Shown: positions 5,478 to 12,296 of the stretch, piece by piece
Numbering within the stretch: position 1 is the stretch's first letter
Layout: each line of letters opens with the position of its first letter
Origin: a virus
Lineage: Duplodnaviria > Heunggongvirae > Uroviricota > Caudoviricetes
Length of the DNA stretch: 15,945 nucleotides
Direction: 5' to 3' (one strand)
Virus record (IMG/VR): IMGVR_UViG_2698536395_000013
Made by a program: the position numbers and the translations under genes
Notes under the pieces: model-generated
Told to the model about the DNA's origin: nothing
Databases searched by the model: none
What the model saw: the letters and a program-made list of their open reading frames with translations, nothing else

Positions 5478-6221
5478 TTACAGCCGTTCAGAACGTAAAT
5501 GCGTCAATACTCGACTCCACTTATCATCCTGCCACGGCCGGAATTTTACATGTGCCGTTTCTCTGGCAAGGATTGCCTGTGCCTTATTGAGTATCCGGGG
5601 ATATTCTTGTTCGATTGAAGTGAAGCGACCGGCTTCGCGGTGTTCTGCTACCTGAAGAAGCGGAGTGACGTTTTGGCAAGCGGTTAACATTGTGTCACTT
5701 GCCCGCCATAACCAAGCAAGTGTGCAAAGTTCGTTATCAGTGAATTGTTTTGTGATTGGGGATTGTTGAATTTCTCGATCGAGAATATCCAGCACCCAGC
5801 GGCGGAATTCTTTGGCCACAGGAGTGCGGGCGAACATGGCGATCAGATGGGCGCCACGGAGGGAGAAAATGCGAGTCTTCTTACGATAATTTCCTGAGGT
5901 CGTTGATTCGACGACCTGAGACATTCCGTCAGTAAACTCATCAATATTTTTGTTGTAGATGTCGGTTACTGCTTTGGTGCTGGCATATTTTAATGCTGCC
6001 GCCAATTCTTTGCTGGTAAACCAGATCTGGTTGTTGTGATTTATAGGAGTGAATTTTACATCGCGGAATGCGAGCTGAGTGACCATAGCGATAATCTCGT
6101 TTTGAATTTGAGCTATCACCACCGACGACGCCAATCGACTGGTGGTGGACTGTGCAAGGTTGGCGTAACCGGTCAAAACGAAATCCGGCGCTTCCGAAGA
6201 AGCCCTCACACAGCCCACCAT
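5478..6221 (-). CDS. Bro-N domain protein (Roi / antirepressor-like), about 247 aa; start uncertain
   Basis: Translation contains FRDVKFTPINHNNQIWFTSKELAAALKYASTKAVTDIYNKNIDEF, which resembles the Bro-N DNA-binding domain. Start chosen at MVGCV (ATG 6221) because the longer track ORF (to 6323) would read through an intrinsic terminator at 6249-6270. A later start at MVTQ (6089) is possible. Confidence 0.55.
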   Translation of the reverse strand: MVGCVRASSEAPDFVLTGYANLAQSTTSRLASSVVIAQIQNEIIAMVTQLAFRDVKFTPINHNNQIWFTSKELAAALKYASTKAVTDIYNKNIDEFTDGMSQVVESTTSGNYRKKTRIFSLRGAHLIAMFARTPVAKEFRRWVLDILDREIQQSPITKQFTDNELCTLAWLWRASDTMLTACQNVTPLLQVAEHREAGRFTSIEQEYPRILNKAQAILARETAHVKFRPWQDDKWSRVLTHLRSERL

Positions 6222-6248
6222 AATTTTTGTGTAGACGTGCACTGCGCA

Positions 6249-6270
6249 TAAAAAAACCGCGAACGCGGTT
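6249..6270 (-). terminator. intrinsic terminator on minus strand (nin-region tR-like) immediately upstream of the Bro-N gene
   Basis: 6-bp stem AACCGC/GCGGUU with a 4-nt loop, followed on the minus strand by UUUUUUA (plus 6249-6254 is TAAAAAA). Confidence 0.5.
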
Positions 6271-6330
6271 ATGCGTCGTTTTGATGTCCGGGACGCCAAT
6301 CCCGTGTGCCGATTTTGCGGCAACGCACAG

Positions 6331-7390: not shown

Positions 7391-8092
7391 TCATACACTT
7401 GCTCCTTTCAGCCCAAACTTAGCTTTGATTTCTGCGATCTTCGCCAGAGCCTGTGCACGATTTAGAGGTCTACCGCCCATAACAGGAAGTTGTTTTACTG
7501 GTTCAGGTATCGTCTCACCACGGTTAATTCGCGCTGTCATACAGGTCAGTTCATCGGCAGCCTTGCGCCGTAATTCCGCGTCAGTCAGCGCATTGGCCCG
7601 CATGTTCTGGTACAGGTTGGTAACCAACCAGTAATGCGCGTTCGATTTCCACGGATAAGACTCTGCATCCGGATACAGGCCACGCTTCCGGCAATACTCG
7701 TAAACCATATCAACCAGCTCGCTGACGTTTGGCAGCCCGGCGTTAACGGATGCTTCTTCCCGGCACCATGCAACAAACTGCCCGGGTGATGGCAGAAATG
7801 GTCTATTCTGCCGACGGGCAACACGCATTCCGGCGCTCACCTGTTCCATCGTGGTGATCCCGTTTTCCCGGAAAGCCAGAACCCACTGGCGGCGGATTTC
7901 GTTCAGTTCGTTCTGGTCACGATTAGCCAGGCTCGCCGGGAAAGTTGCCAGTAACTGGCTGAATACACCGTTGATTATCTGCGCTACCTGCTGTACCTGC
8001 GGCTTTTCGTCGTACTGTTCCGGCATGTTGTTGGCGATCCGACGCATCTGCTCACGGTCAAAGTTAATCATCTGTGCGGCGATGTTTTTCAT
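7391..8092 (-). CDS. P: replication protein P (DnaB helicase loader), 233 aa
   Basis: Translation MKNIAAQMINFDREQMRRIANNMPEQYDEKPQVQQVAQIINGVFSQLLATFPASLANRDQNELNEIRRQWVLAFRENGITTMEQV...AKIAEIKAKFGLKGASV is close to lambda P as I recall it. ATG overlaps the O stop (ATGA). The extended track ORF (to 8197) is rejected. Confidence 0.9.
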   Translation of the reverse strand: MKNIAAQMINFDREQMRRIANNMPEQYDEKPQVQQVAQIINGVFSQLLATFPASLANRDQNELNEIRRQWVLAFRENGITTMEQVSAGMRVARRQNRPFLPSPGQFVAWCREEASVNAGLPNVSELVDMVYEYCRKRGLYPDAESYPWKSNAHYWLVTNLYQNMRANALTDAELRRKAADELTCMTARINRGETIPEPVKQLPVMGGRPLNRAQALAKIAEIKAKFGLKGASV

Positions 8093-9018
8093 AGATCCAC
8101 CCCGTAAATCCAGTCTGTGTTTGTCAGGTCGAGTTTTGGTTTGCCGACTGTCACGCCAGCCTGTTGCTTGTTCCGGTTGATTTCGAGCTGGGTCCACTTG
8201 TCGCGGAGTTTGGCCGGACTCAGCACGTTACCGGACCAGAAGTTGTCCTGGCAGGCCCAGCGGAACAGTACACACATGTCGCGGTGGTTACGTCCATCAC
8301 GTTCACGCATCAGACGGATATCGTTAGCCCACCCTGCAAAATTCGGTTTTCTGGCTGATGGCGCGATGGTCTTCACCATGTCAAACATCCACTCTGCGGC
8401 GGTCAGGTCTTCTGCTGTCCCCCACTTGCTGCCGCTCTGAATCGCAGCATCCGCTTTCACCACAGGAAGGTCGTTTTCTGGCAGGTCAGAGGATTCGCCA
8501 GAATTCTCGGACGAATAAGGTTTTATATTGTCTTTTGTTAGTTTGTCTTTTGTGTTTACCTGATTCGGGTAAGTGCCTTTACCTGATTTGGGTAAACTTT
8601 TCTTACCTGATTCAGGTAAATTTACCTCTTTCAGGTAAACTTTATTTTTCTTACCTGATTCGGGTAATGTTGACCATTCACTGACCACATTATTAATGCC
8701 GATATTCCGCCCGCTCTGAATAAAAATCCCACGCTTTACCAGAACACTTTTTGCAGCAGAACACTTGTGCGGCAATATCCCGGTCAACTCGGAAAGTTGC
8801 TCGTTGCTCACCCAGTCCAGTTTTTTATTAAAGCCATATGTTTTGCGCATGACAGCCAGGAAGACCAGAAGCTGGTGCTGTGTTAATCCGGCCAGCATTA
8901 CAGCTTCCAGCAACTCATTTGCAATGCGCGTATAACCATCATCGAGATCTGCCACGCGCGGCTCCTTTTGTGCCGCATCCGGCACTGGAAAATTGAATAT
9001 CTCAGCAGTGTTTGCCAT
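8089..9018 (-). CDS. O: replication initiator O, 309 aa; N-terminal iteron-binding domain diverged, C-terminal P-interaction domain lambda-like
   Basis: Starts MANTAEIFNFPVPDAAQKEPRVADLDDGY with GGGAGG SD. The C-terminal part AIQSGSKWGTAEDLTAAEWMFDMVKTIAPSARKPNFAGWANDIRLMRERDGRNHRDMCVLFRWACQDNFWSGNVLSPAKLRDKWTQLEINRNKQQAGVT is close to lambda O. The iteron array lies inside the gene. Confidence 0.9.
   Translation of the reverse strand: MANTAEIFNFPVPDAAQKEPRVADLDDGYTRIANELLEAVMLAGLTQHQLLVFLAVMRKTYGFNKKLDWVSNEQLSELTGILPHKCSAAKSVLVKRGIFIQSGRNIGINNVVSEWSTLPESGKKNKVYLKEVNLPESGKKSLPKSGKGTYPNQVNTKDKLTKDNIKPYSSENSGESSDLPENDLPVVKADAAIQSGSKWGTAEDLTAAEWMFDMVKTIAPSARKPNFAGWANDIRLMRERDGRNHRDMCVLFRWACQDNFWSGNVLSPAKLRDKWTQLEINRNKQQAGVTVGKPKLDLTNTDWIYGVDL
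8556..8667. repeat. ori iterons: five copies of a 17-bp near-palindrome TTACCTGATTCGGGTAA inside the O gene, next to an AT-rich segment (about 8500-8555)
   Basis: Copies at 8556-8572, 8579-8595, 8603-8619, 8622-8638 and 8651-8667 with 1-3 substitutions. Encoded as the repetitive LPESGK peptide in O. Confidence 0.8.
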
Positions 9019-9104
9019 AATTCCTCCCGCAATGAGTGTGTTACGATTTGCACCTGAAAGTCGGTTCTGTTCCAGCAGACCGGCTTTCGCCATTTCTGAA
9101 CCTG

Positions 9105-9644
9105 TCATATCGCCCCCAGCATGGTAGTAACCATCGCCATCAATGGACCAGCCAGCTCTGGGTCCACACGAAACATCGACACAATACCTTCACTAATTTC
9201 CTTCAGTTTCTGGTGGCGTGGTGCGTTGAGAATGACAGCCTGTTTTGCCTCACTGAGTTCCTTTTCCATTTCAGCCAACCTAGCCATGAAGCTATCCTGC
9301 TCAACCAGGTAACCGCGATATTCCAGCGGTAGTACCGCCAGAATTGCCGGGGTCAGTTCACGCACGTTATTTCGGTATTTTTCAGAATCGAATTTGTTAT
9401 CGAGGAAGCGGAACAGCTTCTGGCGTGTACGGCTGACATCATCAGGGAAATCGATGGTGCCGCCGCCCTGCTCCCGATACTCATTCACAATGAGTGTGGC
9501 AACGACATCCTGATTATCTACAGCCGACCAGGCGCGGACGGCATCACGGATTTTTTCGTGGCCTGGCACCTGTTTTGTTTGAGAACGATTTATCACCGCA
9601 GTCGGGCTAAATCCGCTAGTCTGTTGGTATGGAAGTGGTTGCAT
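9105..9644 (-). CDS. hypothetical phage regulatory protein in the cII position, 179 aa
   Basis: ORF with AAGGAG SD before the ATG at 9644, between cro and O. Much longer than lambda CII (97 aa) and no HTH recognised by eye. Functional assignment is positional only. Confidence 0.45.
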   Translation of the reverse strand: MQPLPYQQTSGFSPTAVINRSQTKQVPGHEKIRDAVRAWSAVDNQDVVATLIVNEYREQGGGTIDFPDDVSRTRQKLFRFLDNKFDSEKYRNNVRELTPAILAVLPLEYRGYLVEQDSFMARLAEMEKELSEAKQAVILNAPRHQKLKEISEGIVSMFRVDPELAGPLMAMVTTMLGAI

Positions 9645-9713
9645 AATTGACTCCTTTAGTTTGAATTGACTGTTAAGTTGATTGCTTATTGTTAAAGAGC
9701 GTGAAATGGAAAT

Positions 9714-9944
9714 TTAAGCTGCGTTCTTTTCGGTGTGTGGAAACAACTTCGGAAGATCCGGGCGAATCTGGTATGCCTTCACTACTCCACCAGTAGCCGT
9801 AACAATGCTGCCGACATGTTCAGGGGATACCTTTGCTTTGTTGTGAAGCCACTTATAGACGGCCTGCTGTGAAACTTCGCAGGCAGCGCCCAGTTTCTTT
9901 TGTGAACCAACGATATTGATCGCTGTTTTGATAGCTGGGTTCAT
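9714..9944 (-). CDS. cro: Cro-like HTH repressor (Cro/YdaS family), 76 aa
   Basis: Translation MNPAIKTAINIVGSQKKLGAACEVSQQAVYKWLHNKAKVSPEH contains a helix-turn-helix (QKKLGAACEVSQQAVYKW). GGAGG SD. Divergent from cI across an operator region. Confidence 0.7.
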   Translation of the reverse strand: MNPAIKTAINIVGSQKKLGAACEVSQQAVYKWLHNKAKVSPEHVGSIVTATGGVVKAYQIRPDLPKLFPHTEKNAA

Positions 9945-10048
9945 AACAACCTCCGTGGTTAATTTGAATCAAGATTAAAACTATGGTTGTCTTTAGTCAA
10001 CAACCATTTTCGTTTGATGGAATAAAACCTTGGTTGTACATTTGGACT
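9945..10048. promoter_or_regulatory. OR region: divergent pR (minus, for cro) and pRM (plus, for cI) with operator palindromes
   Basis: 25-bp palindrome ATGGTTGT-N9-ACAACCAT at 9983-10007 overlaps the minus-strand -35 TTGACT of a pR candidate. A further TGGTTGTACA half-site at 10031-10040 overlaps the pRM -10 candidate TACATT (10037-10042), with -35 TTGATG at 10015-10020. Confidence 0.5.
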
Positions 10049-10738
10049 ATGAAAACAACACTCTCAGAAAGACTTAAAGAAGCCAGATTAGCGCGAGGCC
10101 TTACACAAAAGGCGCTTGGGGATTTGGTCGGGGTTAGCCAGGCTGCTATTCAGAAAATCGAAACAGGGAAAGCTAATCAAACAACTAAAATCGTGGAGAT
10201 CGCGAACGCTTTGGGTGTGCGCGCAGAATGGTTATCTTCTGGCGTTGGAAATATGTCAGACAGTACAGTGCAACCAATACAATCAACTGTCAGCCATTCC
10301 AAATACTTCAAGATTGACGTTCTTGATATAGAAGTCAGTGCTGGGCCGGGAGTCATCAACCGTGAGTTTGTAGAAGTTCTACGCTCGGTTGAGTACTCGT
10401 TTGACGATGCTCGTCACATGTTCGATGGTAGGAAGGCAGAAAATATCCGCATCATTAACGTGCGTGGTGACAGCATGTCAGGAACGATCGAACCAGGTGA
10501 TCTGCTGTTCGTTGATATCACGGTTAAATCTTTCGACGGTGATGGTATCTATGCATTTCTGTACGACGACACCGCCCATGTAAAGCGCCTGCAAATGATG
10601 AAGGATAAACTGCTGGTTATCTCTGATAACAAGAGCTACTCACCGTGGGACCCTATCGAGAAAGACGAGATGAACCGGGTATTCATATTCGGTAAGGTTA
10701 TTGGGAGCATGCCGCAGACGTACAGAAAACACGGATAA
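10049..10738 (+). CDS. cI: CI-type prophage repressor (N-terminal HTH, C-terminal S24 LexA-like autopeptidase), 229 aa, probably leaderless
   Basis: Translation MKTTLSERLKEARLARGLTQKALGDLVGVSQAAIQKIETGKA (HTH) ... INVRGDSMSGTIEPGDLLFVD ... VKRL (Ser/Lys dyad context). No SD; the ATG lies about 7 nt after the putative -10. The upstream in-frame ATG at 9983 lies inside the operator and is rejected. Confidence 0.85.
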   Translation: MKTTLSERLKEARLARGLTQKALGDLVGVSQAAIQKIETGKANQTTKIVEIANALGVRAEWLSSGVGNMSDSTVQPIQSTVSHSKYFKIDVLDIEVSAGPGVINREFVEVLRSVEYSFDDARHMFDGRKAENIRIINVRGDSMSGTIEPGDLLFVDITVKSFDGDGIYAFLYDDTAHVKRLQMMKDKLLVISDNKSYSPWDPIEKDEMNRVFIFGKVIGSMPQTYRKHG

Positions 10739-10819: not shown

Positions 10820-11083
10820 ATGAGTAATAAAACACTTGTTAAAAAATCAAATAACTGTGTCGATGCATACGCCGACGCGTTTGGCTACTCTTCGTTTGGT
10901 GACGGCTCTCAGCGCCTAGGTTCAATTTCTTTTTTTCATAATGTAACTGAATGGCCTGTTGATGAAAGTGACGATGTTGAGAACATAAAGTACAACATTG
11001 CAACCATTAGAATGCCCGAAGAATTGATGCTTAAATTGGCTGACTTCATTCGCGACCAGCATGACAAAGCTAAAACAAACTAA
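10820..11083 (+). CDS. hypothetical acidic protein, 87 aa, first gene in the rexA-equivalent position
   Basis: ORF downstream of cI on the same strand; AT-rich; GGGAAAGG upstream of the ATG. No family recognised. Confidence 0.5.
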   Translation: MSNKTLVKKSNNCVDAYADAFGYSSFGDGSQRLGSISFFHNVTEWPVDESDDVENIKYNIATIRMPEELMLKLADFIRDQHDKAKTN

Positions 11084-11095
11084 TCGTAATTAATT

Positions 11096-11539
11096 ATGAA
11101 ACACGATTATTACGAAGCTCCAAACCTAAATGATAAAATTGCAAAGGCGGCAGAATCATTTTGTTTGCACTCCAGTGCGTCTTCCCAGCTAGCAGGTATA
11201 TCTGGAAAAAGATGGGACATGCTACAATCAAGTGGTAGCAGTGGGTCTGGGAGTGATAACATGCCTGAAAAAGTTGCAAAACTGGAGTCCGATGTTGCTC
11301 ATATCAAACGAGACGTTGATGAACTTAAAACAGACGTTAAAGCTATCGACAAAAATATGATAACTATTCTTGCACGTCTGGACTCTATAAAAGAATCCTT
11401 AACAAACAAGCCATCAAGTGATGCTGTCGATAGAAAGATTTCAGACGCAAAGCTTGCGGTATTGCTTGGTGTTCCAGCAATCATCGCTGCAGGAACAGGA
11501 CTTTATAAGCTATCAATGTACTTTTTCTTTAGTGCTTAA
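11096..11539 (+). CDS. hypothetical coiled-coil protein with C-terminal transmembrane anchor, 147 aa (alternative start at 11261 gives 92 aa)
   Basis: Heptad-like segment KVAKLESDVAHIKRDVDELKTDVKAIDKNMITILARLDSIKESL followed by the hydrophobic LAVLLGVPAIIAAGTGLY. The ATG at 11096 has no SD; the in-frame ATG at 11261 has GGGAG upstream. Confidence 0.5.
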   Translation: MKHDYYEAPNLNDKIAKAAESFCLHSSASSQLAGISGKRWDMLQSSGSSGSGSDNMPEKVAKLESDVAHIKRDVDELKTDVKAIDKNMITILARLDSIKESLTNKPSSDAVDRKISDAKLAVLLGVPAIIAAGTGLYKLSMYFFFSA

Positions 11540-11613: not shown

Positions 11614-11643
11614 AAACCCGGCCACCGTGCCGGGTTTTCTTTT
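11614..11643 (+). terminator. intrinsic terminator ending the cI-87aa-147aa transcript (timm-like)
   Basis: Stem CCCGGC (11617-11622) / GCCGGG (11629-11634), extendable to AAACCCGGC/GCCGGGTTT, followed by TTTTCTTTT. Confidence 0.6.
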
Positions 11644-11769
11644 GCCCTCCCCTCATCATACACCGTTCAAAAAAACCACCACGACCTCGCTTCAGTTATC
11701 GCTATGCGATGCAAGTCACAAAATAAATCCATCTTAAATACAACCAGTTATATCTAAAACAACCAACAA

Positions 11770-11812
11770 AACAACTTTTGTTGTTGACGATAAAACAACT
11801 ATAGTTTTAAAT
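11770..11812 (+). promoter_or_regulatory. candidate pL with OL operator palindrome
   Basis: -35 TTGTTG (11778-11783), 16-nt spacer, -10 TATAGT (11800-11805). The perfect palindrome AACAACTTTTGTTGTT (11770-11785) overlaps the -35 and shares the ACAAC/GTTGT half-site with the OR region. Confidence 0.4.
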
Positions 11813-12005
11813 GAGTTCATCGCAACAACACAACGATACGGCAATCACCTGATTCACCGTTGCGATGACCGCTTAGATCCGCAGCTTGAATTTCAGCAGG
11901 CTTCGGGGAGTGCGAGGGATGAAACGGACGCGTGAACGTCGGTGTGACCAGCTGAAATCAACTCAACATTTCATACCTTAGTCGCTTCAACGAGGCGGCT
12001 TAGTT

Positions 12006-12296
12006 ATGACAACCGGCGGCCATCCACCGCCTGAATACGCGCAGAAGTCTTTATATGTTCAGCAGCCCAGCTTACGGGCAGGAGTTTTTATGGTTCATCA
12101 ACATTACGGAACGCAGACCGTTAATCGCGGTGCGGTCATGCCAGGAATGCTGGTCAAACGCAAAGATGGTACCTGGACTGCATCAGCTAATTTACGCGGA
12201 CGACTTTATCTGCATCGCGGCATTGAGCGCACTTATACCCGTGACTTGCTCGTGGAAGTTTTTCTCGACGGACGCGGCAACGCTCTGAATCACTAA
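12006..12296 (+). CDS. hypothetical protein, 96 aa, in the kil/cIII position upstream of gam; possibly the C-terminal part of an interrupted reading frame (see findings)
   Basis: ORF in the same frame as the Arg-rich 20-codon ORF at 11919-11981, separated from it by a TAG. No family recognised. Confidence 0.35.
   Translation: MTTGGHPPPEYAQKSLYVQQPSLRAGVFMVHQHYGTQTVNRGAVMPGMLVKRKDGTWTASANLRGRLYLHRGIERTYTRDLLVEVFLDGRGNALNH

Follow-up and report, generated by a model that had tools for sequence, protein, structure and literature searches.

A putative lambda-like immunity region with 434-type operators and a leaderless cI gene in a lambdoid prophage

The 15,945-nt stretch of caudoviral DNA analysed here (IMG/VR record IMGVR_UViG_2698536395_000013, referred to below as the window) is the early region of a lambdoid prophage, in reversed orientation relative to the lambda map, and carries the divergent genes cro (minus strand) and cI (plus strand) with 104 nt between them. 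We find that the spacer between cro and cI (9945-10048) and the stretch around pL (11740-11813) very probably form the right and left operators (OR and OL) of this prophage, built from ACAAC-N4-GTTGT sites and combined with a leaderless cI. The control region is ordinary in kind: a lambda-like layout, with 14-bp sites of the 434 kind and partners of the YdaS and YdaT types. Cro matches the Pfam family YdaS_toxin (4.1e-17) as well as P22_Cro, HTH_3 and the transcriptional repressor family phrog_35, and CI matches HTH_3 (5.4e-13) and Peptidase_S24 (1.2e-18), with UmuD among its matches too.

Operator unit and promoters

The half-site ACAAC/GTTGT occurs 43 times on the two strands of the 15.9 kb; 110 bp at the cro-cI spacer contain five of these occurrences, and 96 bp at pL contain seven. 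When pR (minus strand) and pL (plus strand) were aligned by eye, the common string GTTGT-TGAC...ACAAC-YATAGTTTTAA suggested 14-bp units of the form ACAAC-N4-GTTKT. Six matches to this form (ACAACNNNNGTTKT) are present in the window against 0.10 expected, a number reached by none of 200 shuffles; five of them are located at 9977-9990, 10024-10037, 11771-11784 (on both strands) and 11795-11808, and all but one of the six fall in OR or OL.

Relatives of CI were collected by a scan of one genome per species, which yielded 35 loci. Retrieved with peptide seeds that include the recognition helix, 30 of these 35 loci (35-80% CI identity, Enterobacterales) carry the identical helix SQAAIQKIE; they belong to Klebsiella, Kosakonia, Enterobacter, Providencia, Morganella, Photorhabdus, Xenorhabdus, Serratia, Erwinia, Pantoea, Brenneria, Pectobacterium and others. 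The Cro recognition helix, SQQAVYKW, is conserved in the relatives as well. Across the window and 30 relatives, the spacing of ACAAC-Nk-GTTGT shows a single peak at k = 4, with 40 perfect sites and 128 at no more than one mismatch, compared with at most two perfect sites at any other k. The predicted operator unit is ACAAC-N4-GTTGT, of the 434 type (ACAA-N6-TTGT), and the recurrence of its half-site at the cro-cI spacer and at pL would imply one specificity for both.

Among the same-helix relatives, sites with at most one mismatch stand at fixed offsets from the cI start codon, namely at -25 in 30 of 30 and at -72 in 16. The former position is that of OR3, which lies at -25 or -26 in all 30 and is a perfect ACAAC-N4-GTTGT in 27; the latter is that of OR1, whose half-site columns are invariant in our alignment (A1). 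In E. coli, OR3 has one mismatch, as has OR1. OR2, which adjoins the predicted pRM -35 and is centred at -42.5 from the cI ATG, has counterparts at -49, usually with two mismatches and with TTCGT, TTTGT or ATTGT as outer half. The centres of the three sites are 23 and 24 bp apart in the window and likewise in relatives, and OR3 exceeds OR1, OL1 and OL2 in the G+C content and the variability of its central four bases. On the pL side, OL1 is present in 22 relatives, OL2 is perfect in about 13 and always 24 bp (23 in one) before OL1, and a downstream OL-type pair 24 bp apart occurs in about 14 loci. The fixed -72/-49/-25 offsets together with the downstream OL2/OL1 pair extend over taxa from Escherichia to Photorhabdus and Pantoea. 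The ACAACCA half-site of a candidate OL3 is kept at the same distance in most relatives, although as a full site it is weak.

The promoters pR, pRM and pL are predictions read from the sequence and placed by hand, with their registers checked against relatives (Table 1). In four cases an operator has its last base in common with the first T of a hexamer: OR2 with the pR -35, OR1 with the pR -10, OR3 with the pRM -10 and OL2 with the pL -35. The one-base overlap at the pR -35, where the last base of OR2 on the minus strand is shared, is the same in relatives, and OL2 and TTGACG overlap in the same way at pL. The pR -10 register reads TAATCT, TATTCT, TATTAT, TATATT or TATACT in relatives, and the predicted pR start near 9965 would give a leader of about 21 nt to cro. 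At pRM, the TTG of the -35 is invariant in 16 aligned relatives and TAnnnT occupies the -10 register in 31 of 31 loci. At pL, TTGAC(A/G/T) is conserved in relatives, the predicted -10 shares one or two bases with the end of OL1 according to the spacer chosen, and homology with heteroimmune phages resumes at 11820. An alignment of the footprint shows invariant half-sites, pRM -35 TTG, GTTGTA..T and ATG in variable surroundings.

Two heteroimmune loci, in phage Lambda_4C10 (L002) and in Raoultella (L009), share flanking genes and geometry with the window, but their 14-mer differs: the one that ends on the -10 is ATACG-CAAG-CGTAT, and sites of the ATAGC type stand at the other positions. Their recognition helices are AQPTIWRL in CI and AQPTVWRW in Cro, as opposed to SQAAIQKI and SQQAVYKW in the window. 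Operators and helices thus change together on a fixed scaffold.

Table 1. Positions of the predicted operators and promoters, of related sequence elements and of the genes of the region
Feature	Position	Strand	Sequence or product	Remarks
OR1	9977..9990	-	ACAACCATAGTTTT (+ strand AAAACTATGGTTGT)	between pR -35 and -10; exact ACAACNNNNGTTKT match
OR2	10000..10013	+	ACAACCATTTTCGT	inner half consensus, outer half weak (TTCGT); two mismatches
OR3	10024..10037	-	ACAACCAAGGTTTT (+ strand AAAACCTTGGTTGT)	fills the pRM spacer; exact ACAACNNNNGTTKT match
Candidate OL3	11740..11753	+	ACAACCAGTTATAT	consensus half ACAACCA, second half degenerate; 31 bp upstream of OL2
Further half-site near candidate OL3	11759-11763			
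OL2	11771..11784	+	ACAACTTTTGTTGT	perfect palindrome; last T is the first T of pL -35
OL1	11795..11808	+	ACAACTATAGTTTT	between pL -35 and -10; shares ACAACYATAGTTTTAA with OR1
Predicted pR -35	9995..10000	-	TTGACT (10000 to 9995)	17 nt from -10
Predicted pR -10	9972..9977	-	TAATCT	first T is the last base of OR1
Predicted pRM -35	10014..10019	+	TTGATG	17 nt from -10
Predicted pRM -10	10037..10042	+	TACATT	first T is the last base of OR3
Predicted pL -35	11784..11789	+	TTGACG	
Predicted pL -10	11807..11813	+	TTAAAT or TAAATG	17-nt spacer (TTAAAT) or 18 nt (TAAATG)
Ambiguous operator-like 14-mer	9946..9959	+	ACAAC-CTCC-GTGGT	over the cro ribosome-binding site, about +7..+20 of pR
25-bp palindrome	9983..10007			OR1 inner half and spacer bases, pR -35, OR2 inner half and spacer bases
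Palindrome, left arm	9983-9990		ATGGTTGT	
Palindrome, N9 spacer	9991-9999		CTTTAGTCA	
Palindrome, right arm	10000-10007		ACAACCAT	
P	7391-8197	-	replication gene	
O	8089-9108	-	replication gene	
cII equivalent	9105-9644	-	YdaT-type	
cro	9714..9944	-	76 aa, YdaS-type helix-turn-helix domain	Shine-Dalgarno GGAGG, 9954 to 9950
cI	10049..10738	+	229 aa, 434-like helix-turn-helix and S24 self-cleaving domain (Pfam)	
Terminator	11614-11637			3' of cI and two small ORFs

Several further matches were considered as operator sequence and set aside. Since heteroimmune phages have the ACAAC copies at 11825 and 11830 too, these are not immunity-specific operators. An operator-like match at 2109-2122 (AAAACATATGTTGT) lies in the stem of the first of four consecutive hairpins after the porin gene described below; being part of a terminator hairpin stem, it is probably a chance match. 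ACAAC at 10055 and a 14-mer with two mismatches at 10181-10194 both fall in conserved codons of cI (MKTT and QTTKIV, respectively). About 14 relatives have a match to the 14-mer at 9946-9959, with no more than one mismatch, in the same position. Yet ACAACCTCCTTAGT stands at the equivalent place in lambda, with its unrelated operators, so that most of the match would be the shared cro ribosome-binding site, GGAGGTTGT(T)ATG; we have accordingly downgraded this candidate fourth operator to ambiguous.

In three loci of Brenneria and Symbiopectobacterium (L026, L033 and L034), OR1 is flipped and reads ACAAC-TATA-GTTTT on the cI strand (about -72 to -36), while the inner half of OR2 is AAAAC, the inner pair thus being GTTTT-N9-AAAAC. 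The two inner halves have changed symmetrically, and specifically in this lineage, where the Cro helix, TQAAVQKW, is closer to that of CI.

The strings on which the initial annotation of this DNA relied, namely ATGGTTGT, ACAACCAT, TGGTTGT at 10031-10037 and AACAACTTTTGTTGTT at 11770-11785, are all present at these positions, far beyond chance, and its identification of a cro-cI control region is borne out. The clustering of the half-site and the comparison with relatives likewise uphold its proposal of one specificity common to the cro-cI spacer and pL. Its division into operators needs revision. TGGTTGT, described there as an extra half-site over the pRM -10, is indeed present but does not stand alone; it is the inner half of the full site OR3, which overlaps the -10 by one base. 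AACAACTTTTGTTGTT is a perfect palindrome at pL as claimed, yet the likely site is its 14-bp core, OL2. It had missed OL1 as well as the outer halves of OR1 (AAAAC, 9977-9981), OR3 (AAAAC, 10024-10028) and OR2, the last of which is weak.

The cI start codon and the 25-bp palindrome

The cI start codon (10049-10051) follows the predicted pRM -10 after the 6 nt TGGACT, its A being the seventh base after TACATT, and these six nucleotides contain no Shine-Dalgarno sequence. The arrangement of TAnnnT, exactly 6 nt and ATG is found in 28 of 31 loci (L008 being counted from its second ATG, MKKT), and in the other three the distance is 7 nt. The sequence of the stretch is essentially free, as illustrated by TGGACT, TCAGAT, TCGATT, GCGCGT, GAACGA and AACTAC, and the only bases resembling a Shine-Dalgarno sequence (GGA) are lost within E. 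coli in L005 and L006. We therefore retain the earlier observation of a cI ATG without Shine-Dalgarno sequence shortly after the -10; the distance of 6 nt gives a geometry identical to that of lambda. Transcription from pRM would start at the A of the ATG or a base or two away from it, which would make the prophage cI mRNA leaderless. The leaderless prediction is well supported by comparison, although a start one to three bases upstream is possible. A precedent is provided by the YdaS/YdaT switch of the E. coli O157:H7 prophage CP-933P, where the mRNA of the repressor gene paaR2 starts at the AUG, as established by 5' RACE and N-terminal protein sequencing (PMC8630535); the same paper cites the lambda precedent of a repressor mRNA starting at the AUG.

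A variant of this reading keeps the operators and promoters as described but lets pRM start a few bases upstream of the ATG, which would produce a very short leader. The choice of a start 6-9 nt after a -10 is flexible, and three relatives have 7 nt, but 28 of 31 loci keep the 6-nt spacing although the sequence itself varies freely, and the spacing equals that of lambda, where the mRNA starts at the AUG (PMC8630535). We regard such a leader as improbable.

The initial annotation had taken the palindrome ATGGTTGT-N9-ACAACCAT as the operator, overlapping the pR -35. The overlap holds, as TTGACT lies in the N9 spacer and extends one base into the right arm. In favour of reading the whole palindrome as a single 25-bp operator, to which one dimer or tetramer of CI would bind while an additional half-site stands apart at pRM, are its perfect 8+8 inverted repeat, the recurrence of the order GTTGT-N9-ACAAC in 15 relatives, and weak two-sided covariation at two of the eight arm positions. 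Perfect inverted repeats with 8-bp arms number 13 in the window, this one included, against a shuffle mean of 2.7, and even at up to three mismatches the window holds no second copy of the 25-bp palindrome. Whereas ACAAC-Nk-GTTGT peaks only at k = 4, the reverse order GTTGT-Nk-ACAAC is split 15/15 in the window and 30 relatives between k = 9 at pR and k = 10 at pL, the latter being the pair in the window and 14 relatives. This difference of one base marks a gap between adjacent operators and not the halves of one dimer site. The centres of the two half-sites are moreover 14 bp apart, a distance of about 9-10 bp being required by a 434-type dimer (PMC1636474); outside the 5-bp cores, the arms are non-complementary in L007, L008, L013, L032 and L037; and a single operator would leave unexplained the invariant outer halves at OR1 (AAAAC...GTTGT) and the perfect N4 palindromes OR3 and OL2. 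A 25-bp operator is thus very unlikely. Judged from the sequence, the palindrome is the inner halves of the neighbouring 14-bp sites OR1 and OR2 flanking the pR -35, and its arms reach 8 bp because the strong half-sites all have the extended consensus ACAAC-Y-A-T.

Two further readings of the palindrome are hardly credible. As an RNA hairpin or terminator, and not protein-binding DNA, it is flagged as terminator-like on the minus strand, where it folds with -10.6 kcal/mol (z = -4.2), but on that strand it lies upstream of the predicted pR start and would not be transcribed from pR; on the plus strand, relevant to pRE-type read-through into cI, folding is no better than in shuffles (z = -1.1), and the covariation, while above shuffles, is confined to two of eight positions in closely related lineages and fits a shared spacer preference. 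Alternatively, the palindrome would be coding and the mRNA not leaderless if CI started at the in-frame ATG at 9983, from which no stop intervenes and which gives the 251-aa CI of the PhiR34_1 GenBank record (a 756-nt coding sequence, L001 1884-2639, corresponding to 9983-10738 of the window); this codon, however, is replaced by ATT in strain 3-72 (L007) and by ATA in most relatives, lies inside pR between its -35 and -10, and is passed over for 10049 by RefSeq PGAP in four genomes, while homology to the 434 repressor and Cro begins only at residue 4-5 of the short form. By these comparisons the PhiR34_1 record probably mis-annotates the cI start, placing it inside OR1 and pR, and we favour the 229-aa form.

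Comparison with known switches and proposed working

Set against the annotated operators of lambda, the geometry of the window is nearly superimposable. In both, cI and cro diverge with start codons about 100 nt apart (101 in lambda, 105 in the window), the operator centres are spaced by 23/24 bp (lambda) and 24/23 bp (window), OR1 lies between the pR -35 and -10, and OR2 touches both -35 hexamers with its centre at -42 (lambda) or -42.5 (window) from the cI ATG. OR3 occupies the pRM spacer and ends on the -10, 10 bases before the ATG in lambda and 11 in the window, the -10 and start codon being arranged as TAGATT, 6 nt, ATG in the former and TACATT, 6 nt, ATG in the latter. Both CI proteins have a LexA-like S24 domain, and in both the same operator type occurs again at pL. 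The systems differ in that the window operators are 14 bp (5+4+5) and not 17 bp, with unrelated sequence, in that the DNA-binding domain of CI is 434-like, Cro has a YdaS-type helix-turn-helix domain and the cII position is taken by a YdaT-type gene, in the lack of an N gene between pL and kil, and in OR3 being the best palindrome in most relatives.

Among solved structures, the window CI comes closest to the 434 repressor (4.5e-9), its residues 5-68 aligning to 2-65 without gaps. The base-contacting residues of the 434 repressor include Gln28, Gln29 and Gln33; the window CI has Q31, A32 and K36 at these positions, keeping only the first, and Thr46 in place of Arg43. With one of three helix glutamines kept, a related specificity is suggested and not the 434 immunity type itself. 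The 434-immunity OR, which we read from phage Sf101, has ACAA...TTGT sites 22/23 bp apart. The window shares with it the outer ACAA/TTGT and the two-fold symmetric 14-bp operators, and, as in 434, its CI and Cro recognition helices are similar to each other; it differs in the fifth base, which is fixed (C/G) in the window sites, and in the distance from OR3 to the cI ATG, which in 434 is 31 nt and includes GAGGTGG, so that by geometry 434 is not leaderless. In 434, OR and OL each comprise three 14-bp sites with 5+5 contacted and four central non-contacted bases, and these central bases tune affinity up to 50-fold (PMC1636474); the affinity order can therefore not be read from half-site matches.

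CP-933P has Cro (YdaS) and cII-equivalent (YdaT) proteins of the same families as the window and a similarly short divergent spacer of 97 bp, in which the footprints of repressor and YdaS overlap both promoters (PMC8630535). In contrast to the window CI, PaaR2 is a short protein that has no S24 domain, a toxin-antitoxin pair comes after it, and the binding sites are four equally spaced 18-bp palindromic repeats with the consensus GTTTAGTAA (PMC8630535).

Loci from Pectobacterium and Samsonia (L019-L031; for example L028, 2501-4087) have a CI-like gene followed by a gene for a Mor-family activator, in the arrangement of rdgA-rdgB. In part from PMC13566846, we take these loci to be the published rdgA/rdgB, the circuit of Pectobacterium that responds to DNA damage, and Erwinia phage phiEt88 annotates its homologue as rdgA. 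The CI-like protein has the identical helix SQAAIQKIE, a perfect ACAAC-N4-GTTGT stands at -25 of the CI-like gene and ends on a -10 separated from the ATG by 6 nt, and a ACAACTATAGTTTT site is found about 100 nt upstream of the Mor-family gene. Unlike the window, this is a chromosomal regulatory pair and not a prophage switch, without an adjacent YdaS-type cro and without the OR1/OR2 pair at -72/-49. These loci also contain an in-gene site, ACAACCAAAATTGT, at +132, whose equivalent in the window (10181-10194) has two mismatches and encodes QTTKIV.

We read the site unit, the positions, the conservation and the geometry from the sequence and its comparison with relatives, and from these we infer binding, order of occupancy, activation and the exact 5' end by analogy with the known switches. 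CI and Cro, whose helices resemble each other, would both recognise the ACAAC-N4-GTTGT 14-mers. CI dimers on OR1 and OR2 would shut pR, and on OL1 and OL2 they would shut pL. From OR2, centred at -42.5 and adjoining the weak pRM -35, CI may stimulate pRM as it does from the lambda position, and occupancy of OR3 by Cro or by excess CI would shut pRM. Reading the CI translation by eye, we find an Ala-Gly in EVSAGPG, the serine of GDSM and the lysine of VKRL; such an Ala-Gly site and Ser/Lys dyad in the S24 domain would allow RecA-stimulated self-cleavage of CI.

Five points weigh against this account. None of pR, pRM and pL passes a promoter scan requiring 9 of 12 consensus positions, and we accordingly regard them as weak or moderate matches placed by hand. 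The outer half of OR2 agrees with the consensus in only three of five positions, and its conservation may be due in part to the neighbouring pRM -35. OR3 is the best palindrome in most relatives, the opposite of the affinity order of lambda CI, and the order of occupancy and positive autoregulation may therefore differ from lambda. With Gln29, Gln33 and Arg43 of 434 replaced by Ala32, Lys36 and Thr46, the 434 contacts are not simply transferable. Finally, because the seeds used for retrieval include the recognition helix, the sample of relatives is enriched for the SQAAIQKIE specificity. A broader reading would have one specificity shared by the present prophage family, found in about 28% of complete E. 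coli genomes, the prophages of Enterobacterales and Pectobacterium RdgA, allowing cross-repression, and a switch logic perhaps unlike that of lambda (OR3 as the best site, a fourth site at 9946-9959); we consider it rather unlikely.

Neighbouring genes, occurrence and significance

Downstream of cI, the two small ORFs (open reading frames) of unknown function at 10820-11539 (phrog_4231 and phrog_3556) precede the terminator, in the position of lambda rexAB, and are followed by the pL region and then by kil, gam, bet and exo. The cargo at this place varies among homoimmune phages and prophages: some carry HipA/HipD, GevT/GevA or an ASCH-domain pair, and others carry none. The place is a variable hot-spot for morons or defence genes. 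About 270 nt (11820-12090) separate pL from kil (12090-12296); they have no N-like ORF and are 95-99.6% conserved even in heteroimmune phages, with a 63-nt core (11969-12031) common to HK225 and phi80. The fold of 11820-12005 is no better than that of shuffles (z = -0.6), and this pL leader has no Rfam match. The segment 11820-12090 may be a cis-acting antitermination or nut-like element.

On the other side of the switch, the spacer between cro and the cII equivalent (9645-9713) carries the close repeats TTGACT, TTGAAT, TTGACT and TTGATT on the cI-sense strand. YdaT of CP-933P is reported to bind TTGATT-N6-AATCAA (PMC9986795), which together with these repeats points to a candidate YdaT-dependent pRE-like promoter. 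An antirepressor-like ORF (Bro-N and P22_AR_C; 5478-6323, minus strand) has two RNAs upstream of and overlapping it on the same strand (6138-6225 and 6250-6322), matching C4 antisense RNA (RF01695, 82.5 bits) and isrK (RF01394, 64.1 bits). This is a module like the c4-ant of P1/P7 immI, placed in the lambdoid nin region and possibly adding a second layer of immunity on CI. The window further contains a phage-borne general porin gene (1016-2260; Porin_1, 3.4e-153), after which stand four consecutive hairpins.

Of 5426 complete E. coli genomes, 1519 carry the cro-cI module (95-99.9% identity); among sequenced phages, only six do, all deposited in 2024-25. No classical phage with the same immunity type was found, the operator sequences appear in none of the open-access papers searched, and literature searches with the names of the homoimmune phages gave nothing relevant.

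The present analysis provides a concrete operator definition and a promoter map, as predicted, for an immunity type that about one in four complete E. coli genomes carries, as well as a corrected cI gene start for several phage GenBank records. The operator definition should aid the prediction of superinfection immunity, of prophage induction and of cross-talk between co-resident prophages. With respect to modular evolution, the region is an example in which the lambda geometry, including the leaderless start, appears to have been kept almost base for base while the DNA-binding module was swapped to one of the 434 type. If the shared specificity is true, resident prophages and SOS-type circuits of their hosts could cross-repress one another across genera.

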